Shown: positions 4,981-56,237 of the stretch, piece after piece
Numbering within the stretch: position 1 is the first letter of the stretch
Layout of the letters: each line of letters starts with the position of its first letter
Assembly (NCBI RefSeq): GCF_056712565.1
Contig: NZ_CM160072.1
Reading direction: 5' to 3' (one strand)
DNA: 64,000 nucleotides
Notes under the pieces: model-generated
Seen by the model: only the letters and a program-made list of their open reading frames with translations
The model's database searches: none
Told to the model about the DNA's origin: nothing
Made by a program: the position numbers and the translations under genes

Positions 4981-5254
4981 AACGTGTTGCAATACCAGCG
5001 CCGGCATTGCGGAAATCAGCCCTGTCCCCGATGCTGGCGACACTCCCGCTCATCTTTCTGCTGACTCCTCTGGTCTGCCAACTGTTTGTCATCATTTCCT
5101 GACTGATTCGTCATTCCCTTCGTCCCGCCAGTCACTGGTGTTTGTATCGTACCGTCCGGTGTTGATGTGCGTTTTCCGTGTGTCTGCACCGGCTTAACAA
5201 AATTCAACAGGGTTTGAAAAGGAACATTTCGTGCAAATAACCGAAGCCTTAATT

Positions 5255-5590
5255 TCAGAGCCGGGAGACATCCGGCGTTTTGTTCAGCAGGCGCTGGAGT
5301 TCTTTAATCTGCTTCATGGCAGCAGCAAGTTCAGAGGCAGGAACGACCTGTTCTCCTGCGGCCACAGCAGTAAGACTTCCCTCCTGGTATTGCTTGCGCC
5401 AGAGAAATAACTGGCTGGCTGCCACACCGTGTTGCCGGGCAACAAGGGAGACCGTCATTCCCGGTTCAAAGCTCTGCTGAACAATAGCGATCTTTTCCTG
5501 TGTAGTACGCCGTCTGCGTTTCTCCGGTCCTAAGACATCAATCATCTGTTCTCCAATGACTGGTCTAAAAACTAGTATTAAGACTATCAC
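5255..5590 (-). mobile_element. IS66-family accessory protein TnpA (orfA) relic; rest of the IS is missing
   Basis: [44 protein letters not shown] matches the IS66 OrfA signature; no orfB/tnpC follows. Confidence 0.6.
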
Positions 5591-5728
5591 TTAAATAAGT
5601 GATATTGGTTGTCTGGAGATTCTGGGGGCTAGTCTAGTTTTAAAGCGCCCCCTGCCGTATCAGAACTGGGGAATGCTACAGGGTTTGACCTGTTCCTCGA
5701 GGATCGTAGCGGAGCTAGCCATGAAAAA

Positions 5729-6793
5729 ATGATCCAGGCCCGAAATCAGCTTCTTGCTGAAGCGGCGAAAAGTCCAGCGTTAAACATGGTTCGTCCTAAC
5801 GGCATGAACGATGAGCCTCAGTTCCAGATTCTGATTGATGACGAGAAAGTTCAGGCGTTTAAACTGAGCATGAGCGACGTCGACAACATAATGTCAGCAG
5901 CCTGGGGTTCGATGTATGTAAATGATTTTAACGATCGTGGACGGGTGAAAAAAGTCTATATTCAGGGCGAACCCGGCTCACGTATATCACCGCAGGATTT
6001 TGATAAATGGTATGTCCGTAACAGTGATGGCGACATGGTTTCCTTTGCCTCTTTTGCAACAGGCAAATGGATTTATGGCTCACCAAAACTGGAGCAATAT
6101 AATGGTATCTCTGCTGTCGAAATCCTGGGGGAACCGGCACCAGGATACAGTTCCGGGGATGCAATGAAAGCAATTGAGGATATTGCGGCAAGACTTCCCG
6201 AAGGTTTCCATATTTCCTGGACAGGTTTGTCTTTTGAGGAACGACTTTCAGGTTCTCAGGCTCCTGCACTATATGCACTTTCACTGTTGATCGTCTTTCT
6301 GTGTCTGGCTGCACTGTATGAAAGCTGGAGCATTCCTTTCTCGGTCATGCTGGTTGTTCCGCTTGGTGTCCTGGGGGCTGTCTGTGCTACTTTGTTGCGC
6401 GGCCTTGGTAACGATGTCTTTTTCCAGGTCGGTTTATTAACAACAATAGGGCTGTCTGCGAAAAATGCCATACTTATCGTGGAGTTTGCTCGTGAATTGC
6501 ATGAGAAAGAAGGACTAAGCATTAAAGAGGCTGCTGTTGAAGCGGCGAGAGTGAGGTTAAGACCGATAATTATGACTTCGCTGGCATTTGTAATGGGGGT
6601 TATCCCACTGGCTGTCTCGACTGGAGCAAGTTCCGGAAGTAAACATGCCATCGGTACTGGTGTGGTTGGAGGGATGATCACTGCTACGATACTGGCAATC
6701 TTTTATATTCCTCTCTTCTATATGTTAATTGCCGGGTTCTTCAGCCGCAGAAATAAGAAATCATCGGATAAGACTGAAGCTGAGCAATCATAA
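5729..6793 (+). pseudogene. C-terminal third of an RND multidrug efflux permease (AcrB/AcrF-like); 5' two-thirds absent
   Basis: ORF aligns to the last ~350 residues of AcrB ([19 protein letters not shown]..., [20 protein letters not shown]..., MTSLAF) with nothing coding for the N-terminal ~650 aa. Confidence 0.75.
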
Positions 6794-6892
6794 GCATGAG
6801 TAAATATTCAGGTGCAGTAAACAACATACTGCGCCTGAGTAAATGGCTGTTGGGTTGGTACTAAATGCCCCAGAGATATTTCCTGAAATAAG

Positions 6893-7264
6893 ATGTCAAT
6901 GGAGATTTCAACAGTGGTGCGGCACACAAAATTTGCAGCGGAAGAAACCCGCAAACAAATCCTGGATGTGGCAGAGTTCTGCTTTTGTGAGACGGGCTTT
7001 TCGAAGACGACACTGGAGATGATTGCGGCGCGCGCAGGTTGTACTCGGGGGGCCATATACTGGTATTTCAACGAAAAAAAAGATCTTCTGCGACAAGTCA
7101 TCGAGCGGGTACCACTATCATTATTTGATGAGCTTACAGCCATCAAAAATGGGAGAGTTTTTGAACCGGTTAAAGCGATGTATCGTTGCTTATCACGTAG
7201 CCTGATTAAATTACAATATAATGTACACTTACGGAATGTAATTTATATTGTGTTTTTTTTGTGA
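6893..7264 (+). pseudogene. TetR/AcrR-family regulator, N-terminal HTH retained, C-terminus degenerate
   Basis: TetR HTH signature (TTLEMIAARAGCTRGAIYWYFNEKKDLL); ORF is only 123 aa and ends in low-complexity sequence. Confidence 0.55.
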
Positions 7265-7535
7265 AGAATGTCCGGATGATATAAGAATAAATTTCTTACA
7301 AAAAATGGTGGATGTCAATAATTTTGTGAAATTACTATGTTATATTTTCGAAAAAGGTAAGTTATATAGAGAAATATGTTTGGAAATTCGTAGTGAGACT
7401 CTGGCGTTCCTGCTTTTTTCTTTGTTTACGGGGGGGGGCGAAGTTGCATTCTGCAACCTGATAATAAATCCCTTTTCAGAGAGGGTTGCATAGTACTGGA
7501 GTTGACCCAATCAACCTTCACAGGCATCGATAAAA

Positions 7536-7881
7536 ATGAACGCTACTATAAAAAACAGCTCTGATATCAATGAGTTTGCTAAATGGATTGATGAAAATCT
7601 TGAGGTAGAACTCTCAATAAATATTGAGGCAAAAAAAGCTGGATATTCAAAATGGTATTTACAGAGATTGTTTAAACATATCATTGGTATTTCTATTGGT
7701 AGGTATATTAATAAATGCAGCAGAAGAACTACGTTCTACTACTGAATCGGTCACGACTATCACTTTTAAATATCAGTTTGATTTTCAGCAGACATTTACA
7801 AGGGCATTTACTCGCCGCTTTGGTATAGCTCCTATTGCATACCGAAAACTCGCTAAGGAAGAAGTGAGATGGAATAGTTAG
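7536..7881 (+). pseudogene. MarA/RamA/SoxS-like small AraC-family activator, split by a frameshift
   Basis: Two overlapping ORFs (7536..7745, 7624..7881) carry the two halves of a MarA-type double HTH (AGYSKWYLQRLFK... / ...FDFQQTFTRAFTRRFGIAPIAYRK). Confidence 0.55.
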
Positions 7882-8183
7882 TTATGTAAGCGTTATTTAC
7901 TTAAGCGTGGATATATAAGAATGATATTATCAATATGTTGCTCATGAGTTTTTAATAGCATATAGGCTTGTTAACATAGCCCAGCAATATACTTTGCAGT
8001 GGGAGCAGGTATGCATACAGAACAGTGGGCGAGGACGAGCGTCCCTTTTCGAACAAGGTAGCAAAAGAGGAAGAAGAAAGACAAATACAACTGGGCCTGA
8101 AAGGGTAGTGTTTAAGCCCCCTTTCAGGGGGCCGTGTCAAAGCCGCCCGCTATGCAGATGGTTTTTTACTTTATCTGTTAAGC

Positions 8184-8219
8184 AAAAAAATGCCGCGATA
8201 AAGAAATTGTTACCGCGGC
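8184..8219 (-). terminator. Rho-independent terminator after the extended shell-protein gene
   Basis: On the minus strand GCCGCGG...CCGCGGC stem followed by a run of 7 T, ~20 nt past the stop at 8238. Confidence 0.5.
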
Positions 8220-8237
8220 AGCGTCATAGCAATTTAC

Positions 8238-8783
8238 TTATTTTTTCTTGCCGCTGGAACGAGGACCTTTCTTTGCTGCCTCCTGCGGTACATCAGATTT
8301 TGTAGGTTTAGTGTTTTCTATTGAGGGTTTAACTGGTTGATGCTGCTCCACGGACTTCAGCGTTTCATCAGTGACATCCATACAGGATGCGCTGATTGAC
8401 GTATCAAGGTTAACCACCGGGAATGTCTGTGAAGGCGCGTTTTCAGCCTGCAGTGTCGGTTGTGCAGCAGGCACTTCAGGTTGAGGTTCTGCGACGCCGG
8501 CGGTCACTTTAGAGTGAATAATCTGCTCGATATGCTGCGCGGTGCGGGCGATCACCTTATGGGCATACACCTCGCCAACCCGGCTTGCCGCGCTGATGGC
8601 TGCCGCTACCGCCGCGTTAATTGCGCCCACTTCCCCTTCCAGCTTCACGGTCACCATCCCGCCGCCTTTCGTCAATTCATAGCCTACCAGACTAACGTTA
8701 GCGGATTTCATTGCGGCATCGGCGGCTTCTACCGCCGCAGACATCCCGACGGTTTCGATTAAGCCTAAACTTTTCCCAGACAT
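8238..8783 (-). CDS. BMC-H microcompartment shell protein with a long Pro/Gln/Glu-rich C-terminal extension (PduK-like architecture)
   Basis: N-terminus MSGKSLGLIETVGMSAAVEAADAAMKSANVSLVGYE is a canonical BMC (PduA/EutM) domain; AGGAGA RBS before the ATG at 8783; ~90 aa tail follows. Confidence 0.8.
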   Translation of the reverse strand: MSGKSLGLIETVGMSAAVEAADAAMKSANVSLVGYELTKGGGMVTVKLEGEVGAINAAVAAAISAASRVGEVYAHKVIARTAQHIEQIIHSKVTAGVAEPQPEVPAAQPTLQAENAPSQTFPVVNLDTSISASCMDVTDETLKSVEQHQPVKPSIENTKPTKSDVPQEAAKKGPRSSGKKK

Positions 8784-10107: not shown

Positions 10108-11163
10108 TCACCGTGTAATTCCCGGGGACACGACTTTTCGATAATCAGAGGGGGTCATGCCAGTATCTTTTTTGAAGATGCGGCAAAAATAGTTTGAATC
10201 CTGGTATGCCAGTTCCAGCGCAATGGTATTTACTTGTAAGTCACTGAACCGCAATAACGATTTGGCGATAGTAATTTTACGCGTGGCAATATAGTTCGAA
10301 AACCCGAACCCGGTAATTTTCTTAAAGGTACGGCTCAAATAGCAGGCACTGACAAACGATTTTGCTGCCACGTCATCGAGCGTCAAGTTTCTGAGAATAT
10401 TTTTCTCAATATGGAATTTCGCTCGTTCGATAAAATCGATATTGCCTGTATAGCCTTTTAATGCGTAATCAAACAGCTCTTCGCTAATGGTCAGCAGGCT
10501 GATCATGATGCGGAAATAGCGGCTTTCCATCATGCCATACTGGTTGATGTCTTTGATCAGCGCGGCGACTTTACGGTTAGTCGGCATTAACTTTTCCCCT
10601 TTGGCGGTCATATACTGGCTAACTATTTCCAGAAAATCGATCACGTCTTTGCGCTTATCCTCTTCTATCATATCCACCGGACAGGCACCGTTGAGCGTGT
10701 CAAAAATAAAGTTGTGCCACTGGGTGTAATCGCAATCGTCTATCATGGCGAACACTTTCTGTTTTAGGGCGCGGGATTTTTCATTTTCTCCTTCGTCGAA
10801 TGCTAGGGTTTTTTTGATGGTGTCGGTCAAGATACATTTTTTCACTGGTTTGAGCAGATAATCATCCACTTTAAGGTTGTACATGCTGCGTACTATATCA
10901 AAGTCATCATTGGCCGTGATTACGATGATTTTAGTATCGCTGTTTTTTTTCTTCAGATATTCAATCACCTGTTTACCGTTCGGCAACGGAATATTAATGT
11001 CCACTAAGATCATATCGATTTGACTCAGTTGGTCAATTAAGTGAATCGCTTTTTTACCGGTTGAGGCTTCATGGATCGCAGCGTTTTCCACACACTGGGA
11101 GATAATCTGCCGCAGGGATTCTAATTCGATGGGCTCATCTTCAACGATAACAATGGTAAACAT
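10108..11163 (-). CDS. Two-component response regulator, receiver + AraC-type HTH output domain
   Basis: N-terminal receiver (IVEDEP..., DMILVDINIP, KIIVITAND) and C-terminal AraC HTH (SACYLSRTFKKITGFGFSNYIATRKI). Confidence 0.8.
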   Translation of the reverse strand: MFTIVIVEDEPIELESLRQIISQCVENAAIHEASTGKKAIHLIDQLSQIDMILVDINIPLPNGKQVIEYLKKKNSDTKIIVITANDDFDIVRSMYNLKVDDYLLKPVKKCILTDTIKKTLAFDEGENEKSRALKQKVFAMIDDCDYTQWHNFIFDTLNGACPVDMIEEDKRKDVIDFLEIVSQYMTAKGEKLMPTNRKVAALIKDINQYGMMESRYFRIMISLLTISEELFDYALKGYTGNIDFIERAKFHIEKNILRNLTLDDVAAKSFVSACYLSRTFKKITGFGFSNYIATRKITIAKSLLRFSDLQVNTIALELAYQDSNYFCRIFKKDTGMTPSDYRKVVSPGITR

Positions 11164-12674: not shown

Positions 12675-14515
12675 GATCACCACCTACATAGGAGGTGTTT
12701 TAAAATTGATCGAGTAGGAGGCGGGATCACTCCCGCCGTCCTCTCACACCACCGTACATGCGGCTCCGCATACGGCGGTTCATGTTAACACTGGAACTGC
12801 CTCTGCTGTTCCAGCAGTGATATCAGACCCTGCCTGCTGAACCACGCATTCTTTATCGCCTGATTCATATGGCTTGACTCTGAGTTCCACCATGGCCCGT
12901 GGTTGTTGTACGCTGAGATCATCGCCCTGTCCTTACTCAGTCCTGCTCTTTGCAGGTTCTTTGCCCGGGTTAGCGGTCTCTTCCACTGCCGCTACAACAA
13001 GCAACGCAGTTTCCGTTTGATCCAGCCATCCAGCTCCTCCAGCACTCCTCTGACCTCCGTCAGCCTGAAGTAGCTTATCCATCCACACAGCACTGGTGTC
13101 AGAGCATTGATTGTCGCTTTCACTGATTTGCTCCGGTTTCCCGTCGTCAGACTGTGGACTTTCTCCTTCAGCCTGTTCACGCTCGTCAGGGCTATCTTCA
13201 GCTTCGCCTGTTTGTGCCATGTCACACTGTACCCGAGGAACTTCCGATCCCACGGGCGCGCCACCGCGCTCTTCTTCTCATTCACCTTCAGTTTGTTCTC
13301 CACGAACGCCCTGATGTTCTTCAGCAGATGGTCGCCCGCTTTCCGGCTGCTTACGTAGATGTTGCAGTCGTCTGCGTAGCGGCAGAAGCTGTGTCCACGA
13401 CGCTCCAGTTCTTTATCCAGTTCATCCAGCAGGATGTTCGACAGTAACGGCGACAGTGGGCCGCCCTGCAGCATGCCCGCCTGCCGTTTCTCCCTTTGCC
13501 CGTCTTTAACCATTTCCGCTTTCAGGTAGCGGCGTATCAGTCACAGCACCCGCCTGTCCTTTATCGTTCTGGCCAGACGCGTCATCAGGAGTCTGTGATC
13601 CACCCGGTCGAAGAACTTCTCCAGATCCATATCCACCACCCACCGTTTGCCACCCCGTATGTAACGCTGTGCCTGTTGCACCGCCTGCTGGATAAGCCTG
13701 TCCACCACCGTCGGGATGCCTGAGGTTCTCACGCCGCCATCCGGCTTCGGGATATCCATCCGGCGTATTGTCCGCGGCTGGTAGTTTCCGTCAATCAATG
13801 CCTGCCTGACGCTGCGCCAGTTCTTCTTCAGCCACGGTTTCAACTCCGCCACGCTGAGGTTATCCACCCCCGCCGTGCCTTTGTTTTCCACCACGCGCTG
13901 ATAAGCCAGCATCAGGTTTTCTCTCGTTATCACCGCTTCCATCGTCAGCGGCACTTCCGCTTTCGTTTGCCCACCCGCCGCCGTGCTGATTTCAGCGCCA
14001 TCATGCAGCCCTGACGGATACTGTCCGTCTCCTCTGCCGCTGGTCGCAGTGGCCTGCGCTTGTGCTTCATTAATCATCATCGGGTTCGGATGTCCTAATC
14101 ACAGTTAATCATGTTCGGCCCTTCATGCTGCCGGTTTTGCAGCACTACTACGGCGTCGGCTGACTTCTGCCGCCCCATCCCGGCGCCTCACGGCGCCGGT
14201 AGCACACTGGCAGGGCGACAGATCTCCCGGGGTAATTCACGCGACTTTCCTGCTTATGCCTGTCGGCTTTACGTCACAGCGTTCCGTGTGAGTATCGGGC
14301 TTTGGTGATTAGTGCCACCTTACCCTGCTGCGCCGCCTTAACCGCTTCCTGTTCGTCAGGCCAGCATTTTGCATCCAGCTTCCTTCAGATTTCACCTCGC
14401 GATGAACACCCTTGCCTTCCGCTAACACTTCCCCTCACCGGGTGTGTGGAGGACTTTCACCTCTTAGTCGTTCTTCTGCCACCACAGTTGAAGAACAGCG
14501 CCAGTCACGGCGCAC
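12675..14515 (-). mobile_element. Group II intron (~1.8 kb) inserted just downstream of the microcompartment operon terminator; ends approximate
   Basis: Minus-strand GTGCG at 14515..14511 8-9 nt after the terminator T-tract; RT/maturase ORF inside; domain V-like hairpin at ~12745..12775 (CCGTATGCGG / CCGCATGTACGG with 2-nt bulge) and GNRA-capped helix after it. Confidence 0.65.
12784..14080 (-). pseudogene. Group II intron reverse transcriptase/maturase, disrupted by one frameshift (~13515-13540) and one in-frame TAG (12992-12994)
   Basis: RT blocks 0-2 in ORF 13541..14080 (AGVDNLSVAEL, IPKPDGGVRTSGIPTVVDRLIQQA, DMDLEKFFDRVDH); RT4-5 in ORF 12992..13513 (QGGPLSPLLSNILLD, FCRYADDCNIY); maturase tail continues in the same frame past the TAG (QWKRPLTRAKNL...LISLLEQQRQFQC). 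Confidence 0.7.
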
Positions 14516-33321: not shown

Positions 33322-35106
33322 ATGTGGTCAGACAAAGAGTCATCAGAAGACTACCTAAATTTTGGTGAAGTATCTCAGTTAGCCGTGGATGTACTTACCA
33401 CGAAAGATATGTTACCAGTATCTATCGGAATTTTTGGAAACTGGGGGGCAGGTAAATCCTCTCTGTTAAAACTGATAGAGCAAAAACTTGAGCAAGACGA
33501 CAAAGATTGGATTGTTATCAATTTTGACTCTTGGCTCTATCAGGGGTACGACGACACCCGTGCCGCACTTCTTGAAGTCATCGCTACAGAATTGACAAAA
33601 GCTGCTGAAGGTAATTCAGCCCTTATATCAAAAACTAAGAGACTCCTTAGTCGAGTTGATGGTTTTAGAGCTATGGGATTACTAGCTGAGGGTACAGCTT
33701 TAATGGCAGGATTACCTACTGGCGGTTTGCTTTCTAGGGGGATTGGTGCATTAAGAAATATCACCGATGGCATCCAGAGCCAGGAAGAGTATGAGGCTTT
33801 AGGCAATATAGCTAAAGAAGGTAAAGAAACTGCTTGTGGTTTGATTAAACCACAAACAAAAAAAAGCCCCCCTCAGCAGATTGATGCCTTTCGTAAGGAA
33901 TATGGGGAAATTCTAGAAGAACTTGGAAAGCCACTCATTGTGGTAATAGATAACCTAGACCGCTGTCTCCCTGCCAATGCTATCCATACACTTGAAGCTA
34001 TCAGGCTATTCCTTTTCTTGACTAATACAGCCTTTATTATTGCAGCAGATGAGGACATGATTCGCTCTTCTGTGGCTGATTACTTCAAAGGGGCATCACA
34101 GCGCCATCAAATAGATTATCTGGATAAGCTAATCCAGGTTCCTATTCGGGTGCCTAAGGCTGGGGTCCGTGAGATCCGTTCGTATCTGTTCATGCTTTAT
34201 GCCATTGAACATGGCTTAGAAGGCGAAAAAATAACTATGCTCCGTGAGGGCTTAGAGAAGGCGTTACAGCAATCCTGGAAAGATGAACCAATCTCACGTC
34301 AGGAGGCCTTAAAAATGACTGGTGAAGCGGATGATAGCAACCTCGCGCTGGCGTTTGCGCGTGCTGACCGTATTGCTCCCATTTTAGCCAACTCTCCAAT
34401 TATTCATGGTAATCCCAGGATCGTTAAACGCTTGTTGAATGTTGTGAAAATGCGATCTCAAATTGCGAAGCGACGAGCAATGCCTTTGGATGAAGCAATT
34501 ATTACTAAGCTAGTAATTTTTGAACGCTGTGTTGGAGTGGATGGCACCGCTGATTTATATCATCTCGTGGATATTGAACAAGGTGTTCCCCAGATACTTA
34601 AACAGCTTGACGATAATGGCGGTCAAATACCTACTGATGCACCAAAGACATGGACTGATAGTCCAACGACTAAATCTTTCATCAGTCAATGGGCCCAACT
34701 TGAACCTCGTCTTGGTGGGATTGACTTAAGGGCCGCCATATATCTGTCCCGAGAAACTATGCCAATAGGTGCATATGTGGTTGGTTTATCGCCATCTGGA
34801 CGGGAAGTACTAAATGCACTAATTGAATTGAAAAACACTAGTTCTCCTACAGCAGAAAACCTTTTGAAAGCACTTCCTCGTGAGGAGCAAATACCTGTAA
34901 TGGAAGGTTTAATTAACCAGTTACGGCAGGTATCAGATTGGGATCGTAAGCCCAGAGGCTTTTCCGGTGCATGTCTGTTGGCCCGCTACTCAACAGATGC
35001 AGCCAGCATATTAATTCGTTATCTACAGGAATTACAGTTGGGGATGAAACGACCAGCGTGGATGACTGCAGCATTAAAAGATGAACAATGGAATAAGGAC
35101 GCTTAA
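33322..35106 (+). CDS. qatA: KAP-family P-loop NTPase (QatA-like)
   Basis: Walker A GNWGAGKSS followed by the KAP-characteristic INFDSWLY block; 594 aa. Confidence 0.8.
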   Translation: MWSDKESSEDYLNFGEVSQLAVDVLTTKDMLPVSIGIFGNWGAGKSSLLKLIEQKLEQDDKDWIVINFDSWLYQGYDDTRAALLEVIATELTKAAEGNSALISKTKRLLSRVDGFRAMGLLAEGTALMAGLPTGGLLSRGIGALRNITDGIQSQEEYEALGNIAKEGKETACGLIKPQTKKSPPQQIDAFRKEYGEILEELGKPLIVVIDNLDRCLPANAIHTLEAIRLFLFLTNTAFIIAADEDMIRSSVADYFKGASQRHQIDYLDKLIQVPIRVPKAGVREIRSYLFMLYAIEHGLEGEKITMLREGLEKALQQSWKDEPISRQEALKMTGEADDSNLALAFARADRIAPILANSPIIHGNPRIVKRLLNVVKMRSQIAKRRAMPLDEAIITKLVIFERCVGVDGTADLYHLVDIEQGVPQILKQLDDNGGQIPTDAPKTWTDSPTTKSFISQWAQLEPRLGGIDLRAAIYLSRETMPIGAYVVGLSPSGREVLNALIELKNTSSPTAENLLKALPREEQIPVMEGLINQLRQVSDWDRKPRGFSGACLLARYSTDAASILIRYLQELQLGMKRPAWMTAALKDEQWNKDA

Positions 35107-35858
35107 TGGGAACATCACAATCAAGTAAAGGTCCAGGAGGTGGCTCTCCGCTGGTTCCACCATGGGCTGATGATCAGCCACAGCAACCGTTACCCTCGCC
35201 GCAAGAAAGGAGGTTTGCGCCATTTCGAGAATCGTTGGGAAATGCGGTATCAAATGGAAATCGAGCAGATTTCAGAAAAGCCATAGGGCACTACGCGCGA
35301 AAAGCCTCCGGAGGGAGCAGTAACGCTGCTCGGCGATTAGGGAGTGTCACGCAAGCTGGGGCCGAATTATTTGGGGCTTTAGTGGGAATGCCTTCGGCTC
35401 CCGGAGAACCAAGCATCGATTTGGGCAGTTTGGCAGGCCTTCCATGCGAAATAGCAATATCAACTATTGCTCAAGCTTTAACATCACAGGATGGTGACTC
35501 AGAAAAGATCTGTGCGGCCATGAACCATGCTTTAGTGGAGGCTCTTGATGGCGTAGAAATTTTCGATCCTCAAAAAATAACTGATGGTGTGATTGTTGAC
35601 ACAATGATTGGTTATCTAGCGGAAAGTATTTTCCTTCAGATGGTAATGGATTCTAATAGGGCATGGAACAAAGCAGATACACCTTCAAAGGCAATTCATG
35701 CAGAAATTGAACTCCGGGAATTGATTAAAGTTGTTGTTGATAAACATATGGCACCAAAACTTGCCGGTAACATAAGATCGTTCACACGAAACCAAATGGT
35801 AAAAATTGAACGTCAGGCCATTATTGAGGCCTGGCAAGAATGGGAGGCATACCAGTGA
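35106..35858 (+). CDS. qatB: Protein of unknown function (QatB-like position), Gly/Pro-rich N-terminus
   Basis: Start overlaps the qatA stop (TAATG); no motif recognised; call rests on operon position. Confidence 0.55.
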   Translation: MGTSQSSKGPGGGSPLVPPWADDQPQQPLPSPQERRFAPFRESLGNAVSNGNRADFRKAIGHYARKASGGSSNAARRLGSVTQAGAELFGALVGMPSAPGEPSIDLGSLAGLPCEIAISTIAQALTSQDGDSEKICAAMNHALVEALDGVEIFDPQKITDGVIVDTMIGYLAESIFLQMVMDSNRAWNKADTPSKAIHAEIELRELIKVVVDKHMAPKLAGNIRSFTRNQMVKIERQAIIEAWQEWEAYQ

Positions 35859-37159
35859 CACAATTAGTTTTCCATCATAAACATCACCATTTGCCGCCAG
35901 CAAGTGAGAAAGTGTTACCTGTTCAGCTATATGGATTAAGTGGTCAGAGGCGCGGAGATATATCTGTTATCGGGAATCCTGCGATTGATCGGATCAGACG
36001 TTTGGGAGTACAGCTTCCAGCTAAGGTCATGGATTTTCTGAGTGTTGCATTAGCAGTAACTGCAGCAGATACTTTCGTTCAGCGTGAAAGTTCCGAGGAT
36101 GGTTGGACCCGCCAATTGTCGTTACGACTCCCCCTTCATGAACCATCCAGATGGATTAGTCTAAAGAAAGAACTTGAGAGTGCTTTGCATTTTCTTAGTG
36201 GAGACATCTGGGATTTCGAATTTTGTGACGATGGTTATGCACCGCCAGAGCCTTATAGCCAGCATTCAAGGCATCGTCTGATTAAGCTAAAAGGGCTTGA
36301 CTGTGTCAGCTTATTTTCAGGAGGTCTGGATTCAGCTATTGGTGCAATAGATCTTCTGGCTGCAGGGCGCGCTCCACTTTTGGTTAGTCATGCTTATAAG
36401 GGGGACAAGTCTCGTCAAGATCAGATCGCTGAAAAATTAAGTGGCCAATTTTCGCGCTTTGAGATTAATGCTGACCCACACATTTATCAAGGCGTGACTG
36501 ATATTACGATGCGAACTCGTAGCCTCAATTTTCTTGCCTTTGCGGCCGTAGGTGCTTGTGCCGTACAAGAGATATCTCAACAAGAAAAGATTGATTTGTT
36601 CGTACCTGAAAATGGATTTATCTCATTAAATGCACCACTTACTCCACGGCGGATAGGTTCGCTGAGCACACGAACAACACATCCACATTTTATTACGAGC
36701 ATACAAAAGATCTTTGATGCGCTCGGTATTTCTTGTCAAATAATCAATCCATATCAGTTTAAGACAAAAGGAAAAATGATCTCCGAATGTTCAAATAAGC
36801 AGCTCTTATCTAAAATTGTGGAAAGTACAGTATCCTGCAGTCATTGGAAACGAATGGGGCAGCAATGTGGGGTATGTATACCGTGTATCATTCGACGAGC
36901 ATCACTTCATGCAGGGGGAATTAGTAGAGATGTTGAATATATTTTCCAGTCCTTAGCTAAAGTAATGAATGAAATAGATCGCAGGGACGACCTGATCGCC
37001 CTTAGGATTGCGATCACGCAGAAATCGACTTTGAAAATAGGTACATGGATTGCCAAAAGTGGCCCTTTGCCTACGGCAGAATTTGATAATTTCAAGCAAG
37101 TATTTAAGGATGGCCTAGATGAGGTTGAAAGCTATTTACTGAGTGAGAACATAGTATGA
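35840..37159 (+). CDS. qatC: QueC-like PP-loop ATPase (QatC-like)
   Basis: PP-loop SGGLDS (LFSGGLDSAIGAIDLL) in a 439 aa protein larger than housekeeping QueC; overlaps both neighbours. Confidence 0.8.
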   Translation: MGGIPVTQLVFHHKHHHLPPASEKVLPVQLYGLSGQRRGDISVIGNPAIDRIRRLGVQLPAKVMDFLSVALAVTAADTFVQRESSEDGWTRQLSLRLPLHEPSRWISLKKELESALHFLSGDIWDFEFCDDGYAPPEPYSQHSRHRLIKLKGLDCVSLFSGGLDSAIGAIDLLAAGRAPLLVSHAYKGDKSRQDQIAEKLSGQFSRFEINADPHIYQGVTDITMRTRSLNFLAFAAVGACAVQEISQQEKIDLFVPENGFISLNAPLTPRRIGSLSTRTTHPHFITSIQKIFDALGISCQIINPYQFKTKGKMISECSNKQLLSKIVESTVSCSHWKRMGQQCGVCIPCIIRRASLHAGGISRDVEYIFQSLAKVMNEIDRRDDLIALRIAITQKSTLKIGTWIAKSGPLPTAEFDNFKQVFKDGLDEVESYLLSENIV

Positions 37160-37881
37160 GCATCGATATGCACTGTCATCTAGACTTATATCCTCGGCCA
37201 GACCTCGTGGCTGAAGAAAGTAAGCGTCGAGGGACTTATATTCTGTCGGTGACAACAACACCTAAAGCATGGCATGGTACTTCTTTATTGGCTAAAGAAA
37301 GTCAACGAATCCGAACTGCTCTTGGGCTACATCCTCAAATCGCGCATCAAAGATCGCATGAGTTAGACCTGTTTGATTCATTGCTTTCGGAAACTAAGTA
37401 TGTAGGGGAAATAGGGCTTGATGGTGGACAGGGATTTAAAGAACATTGGGATATTCAATTGAAAGTGTTCCGACACATTCTCAACAGTGTAAATCGGGCT
37501 GGTGGCAAGATTATGACTATCCATAGTCGGGGAAGTGCATCAGCGGTGCTTGATGAGATTGAAAATATCGATGGGGTGGCAATATTGCATTGGTTCACTG
37601 GAACACCTAAGCAGCTTGAAAGGGCAATTGATTTAGGATGCTGGTTCTCAGTGGGGCCTGCTATGCTCGATACAATAAAGGGTAAGGCCTTAGTTTTGAA
37701 AATACCCAAATCACGCATTCTTACAGAAACAGATGGGCCATTTGCTAAGTTTCGTAATGACCCACTAATGCCATGGGATAGTGGGATTGCAGAGAAACAG
37801 TTAGCCGCATTATGGGGGATTAGTCAGATGGAGGTTAATGCTCAGCTAGTTGATAATTTTAAGGTATTATGTACATCATAA
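37156..37881 (+). CDS. qatD: TatD-family metal-dependent nuclease (QatD-like)
   Basis: N-terminal HCHLD motif and downstream His/Asp/Glu pattern of the TatD TIM-barrel hydrolase; ATGA overlap with qatC. Confidence 0.85.
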   Translation: MSIDMHCHLDLYPRPDLVAEESKRRGTYILSVTTTPKAWHGTSLLAKESQRIRTALGLHPQIAHQRSHELDLFDSLLSETKYVGEIGLDGGQGFKEHWDIQLKVFRHILNSVNRAGGKIMTIHSRGSASAVLDEIENIDGVAILHWFTGTPKQLERAIDLGCWFSVGPAMLDTIKGKALVLKIPKSRILTETDGPFAKFRNDPLMPWDSGIAEKQLAALWGISQMEVNAQLVDNFKVLCTS

Positions 37882-38433: not shown

Positions 38434-39009
38434 TCAGGGCGTTTTCCAGATGACAGCTATAGTAAAAATGATCGCCAGACTGGCGAGAAAGCAGAGCGAA
38501 AGCGGGATTTTGTCCTTCAGTGTCAGGTTCAGCTCTTCTTCAACCCATGCTTTTTCAAATTCACAGTAAAATTTATAATGTGCGTACCAGTTACTTCCGA
38601 AGATCTGTTTGCTGATGACCGTGCCGTAAAACCGGGACATGATAGCGTCGATGGATTGTTGTGTACGCTGATAGTCAAAGTTTGCATCGCTTTTTACGTT
38701 GCGGTAGATGACTTCAAGTTCATTAAAAATTTTGGTCTGCTCAATCCCCGCACTTTCATAACTCTGCTTTTCCGAGTCATAAAACTGAATGTACATTGTA
38801 GCAACACCAAATATAATTAATATCGCGGAAATGACGTTTGTGGCCAGCTCAGGAATAAAAAGGGCGAACACACCGACAGCAAGAGAAATAAAGCTAATCC
38901 AACCGGATGCCTTACAAATCAGATCATAGGTGGCAAAGTTTTTCTTAGCGCCAAATCCAACGTTATAACCATGTCGGGCGATTAATTTCAGCATCTCTGA
39001 TTGCGTCAT
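38434..39009 (-). CDS. SLATT-like two-transmembrane effector protein
   Basis: 191 aa with two central hydrophobic helices (WISFISLAVGVFALFIPELATNVISAILIIFGVATMYI) and a C-terminal hydrophobic segment; 8 nt downstream of the SMODS gene. Confidence 0.6.
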   Translation of the reverse strand: MTQSEMLKLIARHGYNVGFGAKKNFATYDLICKASGWISFISLAVGVFALFIPELATNVISAILIIFGVATMYIQFYDSEKQSYESAGIEQTKIFNELEVIYRNVKSDANFDYQRTQQSIDAIMSRFYGTVISKQIFGSNWYAHYKFYCEFEKAWVEEELNLTLKDKIPLSLCFLASLAIIFTIAVIWKTP

Positions 39010-39016
39010 AAAAACC

Positions 39017-40345
39017 TCAGCTTATGGGAACTTCAATCTGGGCCCGGGCAACCACAACCTCATTTTTTATCACATAGCATTCTACCATGTGATCTCCGCG
39101 GAAGTCGGTAGTTTCTTTCTTCGTACAGTAGCCGCCGTCCGAAACGATTTGTCCCCGGATCATATTTCTTCTGCGTGCTTCGTCACCCACGTTCAGTACC
39201 TTCCACATAACGGTGTAGGGTTCCTCTGCCTCCATTTCTGTCAAGTCTGCCCGGAAAAGGAGAGATTTTCGAGCGGAGAGGCGGAATCTTCTGATAAGCA
39301 TCTCCCTCAGGCTTCTGGGAGGGAAACCATCCTGGGTTACGGTACAGTCAAGGTTGAGTGAGTACCTGATATCCACCGGATATTTATCCTCTATAAACTC
39401 TTCGGTATCGGTCCAGGGAACAGCATCTGCCGCATGCGATTCCAGACCAAGACGGGCTTCCATAATACCCACTTTACGTCTGGGGAAGGCTCGTCCGAAC
39501 ACTTTGCGCCAGCGGTCATTTTCACTGGCAGCCCCCTCAGCGTCTAAGGCATCACAACATAATTCATACGCGTGTTTCGCTGCCCGGCCAAACCAGGGAG
39601 ATTTAACACGTACATGCTGATTACTGCCTAACGCGAGATACCTTTCCTTTCTCTCCTCATTTGACAGATATTCAAAAAAGTCTCTGGCGAGGGCTCCCAG
39701 GCTGCCATTTCCGGTATTGTCATAATCTGATGTTGATGAAAGAAAGCGATACGCTAGTGTGTCTATCAGTAAGCCACCCATATTGACGCCATGCAGGTTC
39801 TTCCAGGCTCTGATCATTTTACACAGCTTGCGCAGATTATTGGATTTATCTCGCGAAAATGCGGTCATGGCCGCCTTTTCGTGAAGAGGTTTTGTAATGC
39901 GCCATGCTCCTCCATTATAGCTTTCAGGGAATTTAAAGCTGTCATCATCCTGTCTGAATACAGGTTGAACCTCGACATAAAAGTTTTTAAAGATGATCTG
40001 AACAACCAGTCTGTCCTTTTTCACAGTCTGGTCAGGATATTCTTCCGCCAGAATGTTTCTGACATCTGTAAGCAATGCAGACTGACCATTATCCTTACGG
40101 TTATAATATTCATACTGATTGGGGGGCATAATATAAAGCATATCCAGATCGGATATGCCTTTTATTGCGGTATGTCTGCCTACTGACCCCACTTTCAAGC
40201 GGTTTGCTACCCGGGAACTCGTTCCTCTGAACGCAAGATTTAATGACTTGGTTATTTTTCGATAGTGATAGCTGATCTTTTTTGCCTGTTTGAGGTCAAG
40301 ATTCAAATTTTCAAGAAATTCGCTGAACAATTCCCTGTGGCTCAT
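39017..40345 (-). CDS. SMODS-type (cGAS/DncV-like superfamily) nucleotidyltransferase with C-terminal sensor-like domain
   Basis: Pol-beta NTase motif GS-x10-DLD (GSVGRHTAIKGISDLDMLYI) in a 442 aa protein. Confidence 0.75.
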   Translation of the reverse strand: MSHRELFSEFLENLNLDLKQAKKISYHYRKITKSLNLAFRGTSSRVANRLKVGSVGRHTAIKGISDLDMLYIMPPNQYEYYNRKDNGQSALLTDVRNILAEEYPDQTVKKDRLVVQIIFKNFYVEVQPVFRQDDDSFKFPESYNGGAWRITKPLHEKAAMTAFSRDKSNNLRKLCKMIRAWKNLHGVNMGGLLIDTLAYRFLSSTSDYDNTGNGSLGALARDFFEYLSNEERKERYLALGSNQHVRVKSPWFGRAAKHAYELCCDALDAEGAASENDRWRKVFGRAFPRRKVGIMEARLGLESHAADAVPWTDTEEFIEDKYPVDIRYSLNLDCTVTQDGFPPRSLREMLIRRFRLSARKSLLFRADLTEMEAEEPYTVMWKVLNVGDEARRRNMIRGQIVSDGGYCTKKETTDFRGDHMVECYVIKNEVVVARAQIEVPIS

Positions 40346-43822: not shown

Positions 43823-45292
43823 ATGCATATCGATTCGACTGAAAAAAATAATAAACAAAAGTTGGGCTTGCTTGCGCTAACATCCATTGTCGTGAGCTCG
43901 ATGATCGGCAGCGGCGTTGACGGACTCCCCCAGAATATGGCGGAGAATTCTGCCGTGGGCCCGGTGGCGATAGCATGGATAGTCTGTGGTATCGGCATGT
44001 TTTTCATCTCCAGAACTTTTATCGTGCTGTCAAACATTAGACCTGATCTCCAGTCAGGAGTTTATATGTATGCCCGGGAAGGGTTCGGCCGATTTACGGC
44101 ATTTAACGTCGCCTGGGGCTACTGGCTGATGACTATATTCAGCAACGTCGCCTTTGCCATTATGGTGATGGATACGCTGAATTATTTCTTACCAGGTGAT
44201 TTCAAGGGAGGGAACAATATTCCTTCCGTTATCGGTGCCTCTTTGCTGATATGGGGATTCAACTTTTTAGTCCTCTCCGGTACCCGCATTGCCGGGTCGA
44301 TTAACATCGTCGGCACGCTGGCCAAACTGATCCCGCTGGTGGCCTTTATTATTATTCTCATGCTGTTTATGAAGTACACCACGTTCGCAGATAACGTCTG
44401 GGGGCACAGCGCGAGTAAGGCCAGTCAGGACCTAGGCTCTATTTTCTCACAGGTAACTTCACCGCTTAGCGTGGCACTCTGGAGCTTCATCGGCGTTGAG
44501 GGGGCTGTCGCTCTTTCCGGTCGGGCCAAAAATAAACGCGACGTGGGTAAAGCCACATTCATTGGCTTCGTTGTATCACTGATTATCTGTCTGCTGGTCT
44601 CCATCCTGCCGTTTGGCGTGCTGACTCAACATGAGCTCAGCGCAATTCCAACCCCATCCACCGCCGGTATTCTGAAGATTGTTGTCGGTGAATGGGGGAA
44701 GATTATGATTATCTTGGGGGTGCTGATTTCGGTGCTTACCAGCTGGCTGGCGTGGACCATCATCTGCGCCGAACTGCCTATGGTGGCCGCGCAGAACGGC
44801 ACATTCCCGAAACCGTTCAGCAAAAAAAATGTGAAGGGTTCGGCCTCGGTTTCGCTTTATATAAGCAGTGCGTTTATGCAAATCGTCGTACTTCTGGTCT
44901 ACTTTTCTAACGATGCCTGGCTTGCAATGCTGGCTATCTCTACCCTGACCGTTTTACCTGCGTATTTAATGACCACGGCATACCTGTTTAAACTATGTAT
45001 TAGCGGCGAGTATGCCAGCTATACCACGAATCACAGCCGCAGCGCCGCGCTGGTCAGCAGTATTATCGGCTTTGTATTCTGCCTGTTTATGTTCTACGCC
45101 AGTGAAATCAAATATCTGGCGATGGTTCCGGTGCTGCTTACGCTGGGCGTGCCCCTGTTTATCTGGGCAAGAAAAAAAGACGATCGCGCAGATAAAATAT
45201 TTACGCTACGCGAACTGGCATTTTTTATTTTACTGCTGGTCCTCGACATCATTGTTTTTATTCTACTGCATTATAAAACGATACATTTTTAG
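43823..45292 (+). CDS. APC-superfamily basic amino acid/polyamine antiporter (ArcD/PotE/CadB-like), copy 1
   Basis: 489 aa, 12-13 TM profile, conserved N-terminal block (LGLLALTSIVVSSMIGSGV) shared with copy 2. Confidence 0.75.
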   Translation: MHIDSTEKNNKQKLGLLALTSIVVSSMIGSGVDGLPQNMAENSAVGPVAIAWIVCGIGMFFISRTFIVLSNIRPDLQSGVYMYAREGFGRFTAFNVAWGYWLMTIFSNVAFAIMVMDTLNYFLPGDFKGGNNIPSVIGASLLIWGFNFLVLSGTRIAGSINIVGTLAKLIPLVAFIIILMLFMKYTTFADNVWGHSASKASQDLGSIFSQVTSPLSVALWSFIGVEGAVALSGRAKNKRDVGKATFIGFVVSLIICLLVSILPFGVLTQHELSAIPTPSTAGILKIVVGEWGKIMIILGVLISVLTSWLAWTIICAELPMVAAQNGTFPKPFSKKNVKGSASVSLYISSAFMQIVVLLVYFSNDAWLAMLAISTLTVLPAYLMTTAYLFKLCISGEYASYTTNHSRSAALVSSIIGFVFCLFMFYASEIKYLAMVPVLLTLGVPLFIWARKKDDRADKIFTLRELAFFILLLVLDIIVFILLHYKTIHF

Positions 45293-45396
45293 TCCAGATT
45301 AATTCACAGCAAGTTAAGGTGACGATAATGTCTGTTTCTTGGGCATGACATCCTCACAGTTAAATACTATCTGAACAGTAACCGTGGAGACACCTA

Positions 45397-47766: not shown

Positions 47767-47840
47767 GCGGGGGAAAGAACAATACCGTCGGATCGCCTGC
47801 AATCCGACGGCAATATTATAGAATAGCTGAGGGAAACGTT

Positions 47841-55964: not shown

Positions 55965-56161
55965 AGTTCAGCCTTCTGAATGCGTTAAAGAGGGTACAAA
56001 TTCTGTCGAACTGGGGTATACCCGCAATTATACCCACACAATGGGGTTGATGTGGGGGGAATCTGGTTGAGTTCGGTAGAATTGATTTGGAGGCAGAACG
56101 CTTAAATTGTGGCGTTCTGAAACGAAAAACGGACCTCCGTGGAGGTCCGTTGATATGAACT

Positions 56162-56237
56162 TGGTGCCCGGACTCGGAATCGAACCAAGGACACGGGGAT
56201 TTTCAATCCCCTGCTCTACCGACTGAGCTATCCGGGC
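56162..56237 (-). tRNA. pheU: tRNA-Phe (anticodon GAA)
   Basis: Reverse complement reads GCCCGGATAGCTCAGTCGGTAGAGCAGGGGATTGAAAATCCCCGTGTCCTTGGTTCGATTCCGAGTCCGGGCACCA; pheU rather than pheV inferred from the yjdC-dsbD-cutA-dcuA-aspA flank. Confidence 0.95.

Follow-up and report, generated by a model that had tools for sequence, protein, structure and literature searches.

RND pumps of Escherichia coli are usually tallied at six, or at seven when EefABC is included (PMC12817139). The seventh system, eefRABCD, was recently reported from phylogroups B2, D, E, F and G; it lies between fabI and sapF, includes the outer-membrane factor gene eefC and the MFS pump gene eefD, encodes an EefB that is ~57% identical to AcrB and MexB, and occurs in extra-intestinal pathogenic lineages, having been lost elsewhere by deletion or IS activity (PMC12817139). 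Local control by dedicated regulators is also well described: RamR represses ramA and TetC represses tetD, with AcrR/acrAB as a further paradigm, and in rarA-oqxAB-oqxR of Klebsiella, which is also plasmid-borne, an accessory RND pump with an adjacent AraC-type activator is mobile between replicons (PMC7355843).

We analyzed a stretch of 64,000 nucleotides from contig NZ_CM160072.1 (RefSeq assembly GCF_056712565.1), hereafter called the window. A preliminary description of this DNA had proposed a decayed efflux-regulation module at 5729-7881, made up of an RND pump tail, a TetR fragment and a MarA-like activator. This proposal was borne out: all three pieces were found on the + strand, close to where they had been placed and far beyond chance. 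The real limits of the module are wider, from 5645 to ~8050, and include a spacer and the start of an SLC13 permease gene. Judging from the alignments, positions 5645-8050 are very probably what is left, as a non-functional 2.4-kb scar, of an efflux cassette that was acquired horizontally and is carried on a pheU island. The scar is a product of ordinary gene decay, a pseudogene relic of a multidrug efflux operon that resembled MexAB and had regulators of its own, and the island that hosts it is a genomic island of pathogenic E. coli.

The ancestral cassette has five genes, a divergent tetR1 and the series mfp-rnd-tetR2-marA-like, followed by an SLC13 permease gene and a two-component pair. 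The cassette was whole in 4 of 5,426 complete E. coli genomes (0.07%) and also in Citrobacter koseri, and the scar was carried by ~530 genomes, about 10% of the complete E. coli genomes. Carriers of an intact copy include E. coli STO_Bone1B (NZ_CP054169.1) and C. koseri CP136832.1. A comparison with acrEF-envR, oqxAB and ramRA had been suggested at the outset, and we carried it out on the intact orthologues. Every curated NCBIfam cut-off for acrEF-envR, oqxAB, ramRA, MexAB, MarA, SoxS, Rob and AcrD was missed, which identifies the cassette as a distinct system and rejects these identities. The intact pump scored 1512 against the AcrB equivalog NF011706 (cut-off 2150) and 1441 against AcrD NF007842 (1854). 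With the OqxAB models NF000037 and NF000272, OqxB gave 800 against a cut-off of 2200 and OqxA gave 147 against 835. The intact adaptor reached 489 with MexA NF033834 (cut-off 750). Intact TetR2 scored 80 with AcrR NF007949 (cut-off 271) and 62 with EnvR NF007430 (274), and TetR1 scored 51 with AcrR (271). For the intact activator, the scores were 123 with RamA NF012144 (cut-off 180), 92 with MarA NF012198 (250), 120 with SoxS NF007584 (174) and 136 with Rob NF012228 (380).

The closest likeness of the pump is to MexAB-OprM of Pseudomonas aeruginosa. MexB was the best solved relative of the intact pump (1587 bits, vs. ~1400 for AcrB), and MexA was the top NCBIfam match of the cassette adaptor. 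The tail in the window had been described as AcrB-like; it does belong to the RND HAE-1 family, but it is nearer to MexB (70% identity over MexB residues 667-1039) than to AcrB (62%). The cassettes of Escherichia and Citrobacter differ from MexAB-OprM in having no oprM-like gene and in using TetR and MarA-like regulators, whereas MexR is a MarR-type regulator. A gene of the OEP family was absent from the E. coli and C. koseri cassettes and present only in the Enterobacter-type variant. Because the Escherichia and Citrobacter cassettes lack an outer-membrane factor, as acrAB does, the use of TolC is expected. The cassette also resembles acrR|acrAB in its divergent TetR-family gene directly upstream of mfp-rnd, and AcrR was the top NCBIfam match of TetR2. 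In contrast, neither acrAB nor acrEF has a second, co-directional TetR gene and a MarA-like activator gene downstream of the pump.

In its regulatory half, the cassette recalls RamR-RamA, Tn10 TetC-TetD and marRAB, in which a repressor gene stands beside a gene for an activator of ~110-125 aa with two helix-turn-helix motifs. The best solved relatives of the intact activator were RamA (E = 1.3e-29, the top match), Rob, SoxS and MarA, and one source labels it "Tn10 TetD protein." As in marR-marA, the tetR2 and MarA-like genes are co-directional and overlapping, but a TetR-type repressor takes the place of the MarR-type one. The pair differs from all three systems in being attached to its own RND pump, and in the window both genes are broken. 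A dedicated AraC-type activator beside the pump is shared with rarA-oqxAB-oqxR, as is plasmid carriage in the Enterobacter-type cassette, whereas oqx has a GntR-type repressor and its genes are arranged in a different order. Both the cassette and eefRABCD are accessory RND operons with a TetR regulator. Identity with eefRABCD was excluded by location and gene content: the scar lies on a pheU island beside the glycyl-radical propanediol (grp) locus rather than between fabI and sapF, and its cassette has tetR2 and marA-like instead of eefC and eefD. Furthermore, ~57% identity to MexB for EefB compares with 70% for the scar tail (each against MexB, not the tail against EefB), and eefRABCD is intact and conserved, in contrast to the scarred and only rarely intact cassette.

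Edges of the scar and the truncated pump

The intact locus L004 was used as the reference to map the lesions at base level. On the left, the scar is bordered by an IS2-like (IS3 family) remnant on the - strand at 5286..5636, which retains its left inverted-repeat terminus together with a 5' portion of orfA. It was 94.9-98.6% identical to records of "IS3-like element IS2 family transposase" (Megablast; matches ending at 5636-5641), ORF 5255-5590 matched Pfam HTH_Tnp_1 (E = 1.3e-19), and PGAP annotated it as "transposase, incomplete, missing C-terminus." The outer end of the element (5636) is the cut point of the efflux operon and abuts pump codon 663. In the alignment with L004, the first pump-homologous base is separated from the IS end by gttttaaa, a stretch of eight bases (5637..5644). 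Missing to the left of this junction are tetR1, mfp and two thirds of rnd.

What survives of rnd is the 3' third of an HAE-1 permease pseudogene (5645..6793, + strand), comprising residues 663-1044 of 1044 and the stop codon, or the last 37% of the permease. In a tblastn comparison with the intact L004 pump, homology ran from 5645 to 6790, that is, over 382 codons, with 95.3% amino-acid identity. The remaining part had first been put at ~350 codons, a figure counted from an ATG at 5729 that is not a genuine start codon. The tail matched Pfam ACR_tran (PF00873; E = 2e-126) at model positions 686-1020 of 1021 and spans the last part of the second periplasmic loop as well as TM7-12, including the TM10/TM11 motifs; TM1-6 and the first loop are deleted. 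A full-length HAE-1 permease has ~1040 aa, 12 TM, both loops and the TM4 proton-relay aspartates, whereas the window holds residues 663-1044 only. Membership of the HAE-1 RND family is clear, the intact orthologue scoring 1679 bits with TIGR00915 against a cut-off of 940. Since both the start codon and its own promoter are absent, the tail is a pseudogene, and PGAP describes it as [quoted passage not shown]

Just 3' of the pump stop codon, a repeat search found an imperfect inverted repeat (6805..6841, + strand) with the arms TATTCAGGTGCAGTA and TACTGCGCCTGAGTA. The arms are 87% complementary in the window, 100% in L004 and 92% in C. koseri, where there are changes in the arms on both sides. 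In Enterobacter and Brenneria, this position is occupied by unrelated sequence, in which short inverted repeats were seen by eye in the alignment. The repeat may form an RNA hairpin or serve as an operator ahead of tetR2. In L004, inverted repeats at 5832-5855 and 10161-10200 are candidate operators for TetR1 and TetR2 in the tetR1-mfp and rnd-tetR2 intergenic regions.

On the right, the MarA-like gene is followed by the ancestral spacer that separates it from the SLC13 permease gene (7882..8011, + strand; ~90% identity to L004 11255-11383) and, as aligned with L004, by the first ~13 codons of the SLC13/DASS permease gene (8012..8050, + strand). The corresponding L004 gene matched TIGR00785 (DASS family) with E = 4.8e-73. 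The grp locus begins where the SLC13 homology ends. A promoter and terminator scan of 5200-8400 gave no more sites than were found in shuffled sequence, so the scan is uninformative on expression, and an Rfam search returned zero matches within the scar.

The same-strand order of pump, TetR and MarA-like genes noted earlier is real. Because the intact version in L004 has the identical rnd-tetR-marA-like order, this co-directional order is native to the cassette and reflects no rearrangement. The reported departure from the divergent acrR-acrAB arrangement applies to the second TetR gene; the cassette also has a divergent one, tetR1, which disappeared here when the operon lost its 5' part. The preliminary description had offered two readings, the scar of a larger locus or a distinct efflux system once borne on an island, and both are true, in view of the intact cassette and the pheU island. 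The window is part of the pheU (tRNA-Phe) island and contains both the tRNA-Phe gene and an integrase gene. In C. koseri, the intact copy is likewise island-borne, at the same tRNA-Phe (pheU) and with an integrase present. C. koseri, Brenneria and Enterobacter bugandensis all keep the gene order of the cassette, with RND identities of 96.6%, 83% and 83.6%, respectively; the E. bugandensis version has a third TetR and an outer-membrane factor, and its activator is Rob-like.

Broken regulators and alternative explanations

Alignment to intact alleles showed that tetR2, a TetR/AcrR-family regulator gene, is present at full length (6893..7564, + strand) but frameshifted twice. The TetR gene had been described as truncated; its N-terminal ORF is indeed real (6893-7264, 123 aa; TetR_N, PF00440, E = 2e-14), but the coding DNA continues to 7564. 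Intact orthologues have 221-223 aa. The first frameshift, a +1 shift that ends TetR2 at codon 123, lies in a T8 run (7253..7260, + strand) that is T7 in intact alleles. The second lies in a G9 run (7430..7438, + strand) that replaces the ancestral 10-nt GGGGGTGGTG; two T-to-G changes turned this motif into a homopolymer, which then varied in length. The combination of TetR_N with an in-frame C-terminal ligand/dimerisation domain (~200 aa), which characterizes TetR/AcrR regulators, is found in the intact alleles but not in the window.

The MarA-like gene, which encoded a small AraC-family activator of the MarA/SoxS/RamA type and ancestrally had 119 aa, is split (7536..7881, + strand). It overlaps the 3' end of tetR2; in L004, the two co-directional genes overlap by 23 nt. 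Its remains form ORFs of 69 and 85 aa in two frames, both with matches to HTH_AraC/HTH_18, and by tblastn, residues 1-58 mapped to 7536-7709 and residues 63-119 to 7708-7878. A frameshift at ~7624-7745 had been suspected. The gene is split into two frames, but the cause is a 14-bp deletion at 7706..7707 (+ strand; ATCAGAGATAGCAG in the intact allele), not a single-base slip, with the loss of four codons and a shift of frame. The deletion falls in the stretch linking the two helix-turn-helix motifs of MarA-type proteins. A MarA/SoxS/Rob/RamA activator is a single polypeptide of ~105-130 aa with two helix-turn-helix motifs and a linker helix, and the window encodes none. The intact 119-aa protein has the two motifs, and its residues 11-109 align to RamA, Rob, SoxS and MarA.

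Comparison with the intact locus showed how the cassette decayed. An IS2-like insertion and an adjacent deletion removed tetR1, mfp and rnd codons 1-662, the grp locus replaced everything past SLC13 codon ~13, and the 14-bp deletion split the MarA-like gene. Homopolymer slippage, probably later, broke tetR2, by expansion of T7 to T8 and in the newly formed G run, now G9. The same pump truncation point was seen in the matches listed and is implied for about 530 genomes; a separate IS3-family truncation was present in four genomes of the intact allele type. Lineages have added lesions of their own: in ESY002, a nonsense codon interrupts the RND tail and W17 of the MarA-like gene has become a stop, SCU-204 has an inserted A at 7228, and CFT073 has a G11 run. 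Among the polymorphic codons within the remnant clade, 4 were synonymous, 12 non-synonymous and 2 nonsense; these substitutions look neutral, their ratio being close to the 3.2:1 expected without selection. Between the remnant and intact alleles, pN/pS was 0.11, which indicates that this divergence accrued while the gene was under selection. The remnant therefore has the marks of a pseudogene, namely disabling lesions relative to an intact orthologue, additional lineage-specific lesions and a neutral substitution pattern, and it is predicted to build neither a pump nor an intact regulator and to drift neutrally. PGAP, independently, classifies the pump as a pseudogene and still calls the short regulator pieces as genes.

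These gene calls are one of several observations that fit a remnant with some residual function, in which an orphan TetR2 would be phase-variable through slippage at the poly-G and poly-T runs, or the helix-turn-helix fragments would serve in the mar/sox/rob network as partial or dominant-negative regulators. We consider this improbable. Some lineages, ESY002 and MS 21-1 among them, keep TetR2 as a full-length ORF, and the two T-to-G substitutions did create a mutable G8-G11 run in B2 strains. Searches of complete genomes with exact 89- to 92-mers counted 88 genomes with G8, 74 with G9, 8 with G10, 9 with G11 and 310 with the ancestral GGGGGTGGTG. The ~310 ancestral genomes are compatible with an intact TetR2, the count having scored that site alone. 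Yet only 8 of the 179 genomes with a pure G run carry the in-frame G10, and the single G10 genome inspected, APEC O1, carries the T8 frameshift as well. Moreover, tetR2 has accumulated 7 non-synonymous changes vs. 1 synonymous change within the remnant clade, so constraint was not seen, and what TetR2 presumably controlled, the pump and the overlapped MarA-like gene, is defunct in all remnant genomes. A phase-variable switch at the G run is thus unsupported, in-frame alleles being rare and the ORF showing no constraint. In some lineages, the MarA-like frame has been restored: MS 21-1 and SCU-204 have lost 1 nt upstream of the 14-bp deletion, which gives an ORF of 114 aa, but its 25 out-of-frame residues garble the protein at the expected first helix-turn-helix. 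This loss could be a hint of selection or a chance event at an A run. Two independent frame-restoring deletions, which would have been a sign of selection, were considered and rejected: a single C-to-A change is all that separates the ESY002 allele from that of MS 21-1, and one deletion with one substitution therefore accounts for these alleles equally well.

Still less credible is the view that the regulators are truly intact and that the frameshifts are sequencing or assembly errors, chiefly at homopolymer runs. Two of the three regulator lesions do lie in homopolymers (T8 and G9), which are classic error sites, and the length of the G run varies from G8 to G11 between assemblies, but allele counts across complete genomes effectively rule this view out. 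The exact T8 90-mer was present in 116 complete E. coli genomes, and G9 recurs in the 74 genomes counted above, many of them independently sequenced. At least 17 of the records listed were 100% identical to the window allele over 3.1 kb, and several complete genomes of E. coli B2 that were obtained independently, among them the ST95 strains ATCC 11775 and S88, showed full identity. The IS truncation and the 14-bp deletion lie outside homopolymers, and correcting both runs would leave the pump and the MarA-like gene broken. The deletion was found in all 518 complete genomes carrying that part of the remnant, the alignment being broken there only by genomes of the intact type; because it is common to all of them, the MarA-like lesion is not a sequencing error. 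Finally, that the fragments are decayed acrEF-envR, oqxAB-rarA/oqxR, ramRA-acrAB or eefRABCD has a negligible probability, for they share with these systems the general family resemblance of an RND pump, a TetR protein and a small AraC-type activator whose best solved relative is RamA, but the missed equivalog cut-offs, the greater nearness of the pump to MexB and the different location and content of eefRABCD all speak against it.

The ancestral cassette and its significance

The working of the intact cassette can be proposed from its protein families. The MFP and RND proteins would form a drug/proton antiporter of the MexAB/AcrAB type, and TolC would be borrowed in Escherichia and Citrobacter, whose cassettes do not include a gene for an outer-membrane factor. 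TetR1 would be the local repressor at the pump promoter, as AcrR is for acrAB. TetR2 would repress the overlapping, co-transcribed MarA-like activator until released by a ligand, as in RamR/RamA, TetC/TetD and marRA, and the activator would then raise expression of the pump and probably of the mar/sox/rob regulon too. It is possible, and we suggest it only tentatively, that the ancestral cassette is a working, so far undescribed eighth Escherichia RND system that moves on pheU islands and confers multidrug tolerance in one step. Our literature search, whose coverage was incomplete, found no description of the cassette and an orthologous group in which no characterised member was found. As far as this search shows, Escherichia once had, and rare strains still have, an undescribed efflux system. 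No close plasmid copies of the cassette were found. The best plasmid match of TetR2, at 42% identity, belongs to the related Enterobacter-type cassette, which is flanked by copies of IS903B and IS5 and carried by a conjugative IncFIB plasmid. Since a related version is found on such a plasmid, the cassette may be worth examining as a mobile resistance determinant.

For the window, the scar matters little, being dead DNA whose pump is already flagged as a pseudogene in RefSeq; the mildly interesting part is the uncharacterised ancestral cassette. The scar is a clean natural case of stepwise decay by IS truncation, microdeletion, homopolymer creation and slippage. It can be used as a marker of B2 lineages, and annotation of its pieces as TetR or AraC regulators should be avoided. 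Beyond the usual tally, it adds another pump, scarred in ~10% of complete E. coli genomes and whole in 4 of 5,426, with the uncommon arrangement of one pump with two TetR repressors and a MarA-type activator. If the cassette is indeed an eighth system, its built-in, TetR-repressed activator could switch on the mar/sox/rob regulon of the host (acrAB, tolC, micF) along with its own pump, so that acquisition could give multidrug tolerance in one step. The cassette would then be moving between Enterobacterales on pheU islands, and the scar in ~10% of E. coli genomes would record repeated gain and loss of the module.

Structure and lesions of the efflux remnant

The decayed efflux module was confirmed by an ORF listing and Pfam searches, which placed three co-directional pieces on the + strand: the C-terminus of an RND permease (5729–6793; ACR_tran, E = 2e-126, model positions 686–1020 of 1021), an N-terminal TetR ORF (6893–7264; TetR_N, E = 2e-14), and two overlapping ORFs of the AraC-type helix-turn-helix family (7536–7745 and 7624–7881). 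A transposase orfA fragment (5255–5590, − strand) lies directly upstream of the RND tail. The RefSeq features coincide exactly with these pieces: the pump is annotated as a pseudogene with a missing N-terminus, and the regulators as one TetR protein of 123 aa and two short AraC/helix-turn-helix proteins. In the same annotation, the scar is flanked by CP4-type island genes on one side and by the glycyl-radical propanediol microcompartment (grp) locus on the other. Many complete Escherichia coli B2 genomes, including ATCC 11775 and S88, are 100% identical to the window across 3.1 kb.

At the left edge, the left end of an IS2-like element finishes at 5636, and after eight bases pump homology begins at 5645, corresponding to residue 663. 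This break point was common to the matches listed and is implied for ∼530 genomes, so the truncation was a single event. The preliminary description had estimated the pump remnant at ∼350 codons; only the C-terminal part is indeed present, but 382 codons survive, and they are 95.3% identical to the intact protein. The TetR gene, described as truncated, in fact retains all of its coding DNA (tetR2, 6893–7564), and an extra T (T8 at 7253–7260 vs. T7 in the intact alleles) stops translation at codon 123. In the same gene, the ancestral GGGGGTGGTG was converted by two T-to-G substitutions in B2 strains into a pure G run, which is G9 in the window (7430–7438). The MarA-like gene is broken, as had been noted, but the lesion is the loss of 14 bp between 7706 and 7707; four codons are missing, and the two helix-turn-helix motifs are thrown into different frames. 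On the right, the spacer and the opening ∼13 codons of an SLC13 gene (8012 to ∼8050) are still homologous to the ancestral locus, and grp-locus sequence begins there.

Sequencing error as the source of these lesions was ruled out by counting the complete genomes that hold each run allele with its exact flanking sequence: T8 occurred in 116, and G8, G9, G10, and G11 in 88, 74, 8, and 9, respectively, with 310 carrying the ancestral GGGGGTGGTG. The 14-bp-deleted allele was found at unchanged length in 518 genomes, and the alignment was broken there only by intact-type genomes. The remnant is nonfunctional: the start codon, the adaptor gene, the first half of the pump, and an intact regulator are all absent.

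The intact cassette and its relatives

The interpretation of the module as a decayed locus was supported, with corrections, by an intact ancestor and the lesion map. A match was obtained in 538 E. coli genomes, among which the allele of strain PRO_A-1374-6M-A_ESBL (locus L004) is 92% identical and complete. It consists of a divergent tetR1 (210 aa), the adaptor gene mfp (374 aa according to PGAP; 385 aa as the longest ORF), rnd (1044 aa), tetR2 (221 aa), and a marA-like gene (119 aa) that overlaps tetR2 by 23 nt, followed by genes for an SLC13/DASS permease, a histidine kinase, and a response regulator. The whole cassette was present in only 4 of 5,426 complete genomes; in four further genomes of this allele type, tetR1, mfp, and 60 rnd codons were lost to a separate IS3-family truncation. 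In a single genome, E. coli EC24 (NZ_CM169477.1), only the pump tail and ∼150 nt are left, and this scar has been rearranged further, because its neighbours are sialic-acid (nan) genes and, on the opposite side, a TerB-domain pseudogene.

The intact pump scored highest against MexB structures (1587 bits; AcrB, ∼1400), the tail in the window shares 70% identity with MexB and 62% with AcrB, and MexA was the best curated model for the adaptor. None of the equivalog cut-offs for MexA, AcrA, AcrB, AcrD, OqxA, OqxB, AcrR, EnvR, RamA, MarA, SoxS, or Rob was reached; the nearest solved relatives of the activator are RamA, Rob, SoxS, and MarA. The eefRABCD system was rejected as the source of the scar, based on its location between fabI and sapF, its gene content (with an outer-membrane factor and an MFS pump), and the identity of EefB to MexB and AcrB of only ∼57% (PMC12817139). 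The ancestor is an uncharacterised representative of a familiar type of system.

Relatives of TetR2 are few: 90–100% identical in E. coli, 80% in Citrobacter koseri, ∼48–53% in Samsonia, Pectobacterium, and Brenneria, and ∼42% in Klebsiella michiganensis, Enterobacter, and Kosakonia. All five genes occur in C. koseri (RND 96.6%, MFP 93.9%, TetR1 93.8%, TetR2 80%, and activator 78% identical), and the Brenneria version is without the activator. In that of Enterobacter bugandensis, the activator is Rob-like and bears a GyrI-like domain, and an outer-membrane factor and a third TetR are also present. The same-strand order, which had been contrasted with divergent acrR-acrAB and attributed either to a rearranged larger locus or to a different, once island-borne efflux system, is real, but because it is conserved across these relatives, it is native to the cassette.

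By analogy with the AcrR/acrAB, RamR/RamA, and TetC/TetD paradigms (PMC7355843), the intact cassette would encode a TolC-dependent tripartite drug/proton antiporter. TetR1 would be a local repressor acting at the divergent promoter region, where a 9-nt inverted repeat lies between tetR1 and mfp (L004 5832–5855), and in a second module TetR2 would repress the overlapping MarA-type activator. Another inverted repeat follows the pump stop codon; its arms match perfectly in the intact allele and have degraded in the window, and it could be an RNA hairpin or an operator. Other genera have unrelated sequence at this position, with short inverted repeats read by eye.

Ongoing decay and selection

Additional lesions, which differ between sister lineages, indicate that decay is still under way. 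In ESY002, a nonsense codon interrupts the pump tail and W17 of the marA-like gene has become a stop; in SCU-204, an A is inserted at 7228 alongside T8 and G8; and CFT073 combines T7 and G11, giving a 189-aa TetR2. A full-length TetR2 of 223 aa is retained in MS 21-1 and ESY002. MS 21-1 and SCU-204 have lost one more base at the A run (7630–7637), upstream of the 14-bp deletion. The run, C+A7, was compared between the window and loci L012, L013, and L003; the loss may have happened once, together with a C-to-A substitution, or twice separately. With 15 nt missing in all, the marA-like gene regains its frame and yields a 114-aa ORF with 25 garbled (out-of-frame) residues, which PGAP calls as a gene.

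Polymorphic codons within the remnant clade (synonymous/non-synonymous/nonsense) numbered 2/2/1 in the pump tail, 1/7/0 in tetR2, and 1/3/1 in the marA-like gene, and the totals (4/12/2) are near the ratio of ∼3.2:1 (non-synonymous to synonymous sites) that an absence of selection would predict. The divergence of the pump tail from the intact allele accrued under constraint, because pN/pS was 0.11 (pN = 0.021, pS = 0.20). The remnant, intact E. coli, and C. koseri alleles are roughly equidistant at synonymous sites (pS = 0.20–0.21), which fits repeated acquisition of a mobile cassette. The run at 7430–7438 is a natural record of homopolymer creation, then slippage, in neutral DNA.

Island and plasmid context

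The window is a pheU island, with tRNA-Phe at 56162–56237; the boundary (54699–56237, − strand) includes an adjoining tyrosine integrase, beyond which lies dicD(yjdC)-dsbD-cutA-dcuA-aspA. In C. koseri, the intact cassette is <5 kb from an integrase and tRNA-Phe, beside the same dsbD-cutA-dcuA genes. Since both are on islands at tRNA-Phe, the cassette is island cargo in the two species.

Elsewhere in the window, a decayed group II intron (12709–14406, − strand; Rfam RF00029, RF01998, and RF02001) lies between grpP and grpO, its reverse-transcriptase ORF in two halves (12992–13513 and 13541–14080) that RefSeq annotates as separate reverse-transcriptase proteins. A Qat anti-phage system (KAP NTPase, QatB, QatC, and QatD) and an adjoining pair of SLATT-domain and nucleotide-binding-domain genes (∼33322–37881, + strand; 38434–40345, − strand; RefSeq, identical S88 sequence) together resemble a small defence cluster within this island. 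An Orn/Lys/Arg-family decarboxylase gene between two basic amino acid/polyamine antiporter genes (43823–49340, + strand) may be an IS-mobilised acid-resistance-type module, because IS1 copies bracket it. A 407-aa ORF (349–1572, + strand), labeled only as a hypothetical protein in RefSeq, lies in a block of 30–34% GC, much lower than elsewhere on the island.

No close copy of the cassette was found among the PLSDB plasmids. The Enterobacter-type cassette occurs on a conjugative IncFIB plasmid of K. pneumoniae from wastewater (NZ_CP055107.1, 21759–36340), where seven genes (divergent tetR, then mfp-rnd-tetR-Rob-like-OMF-tetR) lie between IS903B and IS5 transposase genes in a layout identical to that of the E. 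bugandensis chromosomal locus. The plasmid locus may represent an RND cluster that has been mobilised and that differs from tmexCD-toprJ and oqxAB. The scar itself is an ordinary pseudogene of low interest; its ancestral pump is worth noting, since tallies of Escherichia RND pumps currently omit it and one of its relatives is plasmid-borne.
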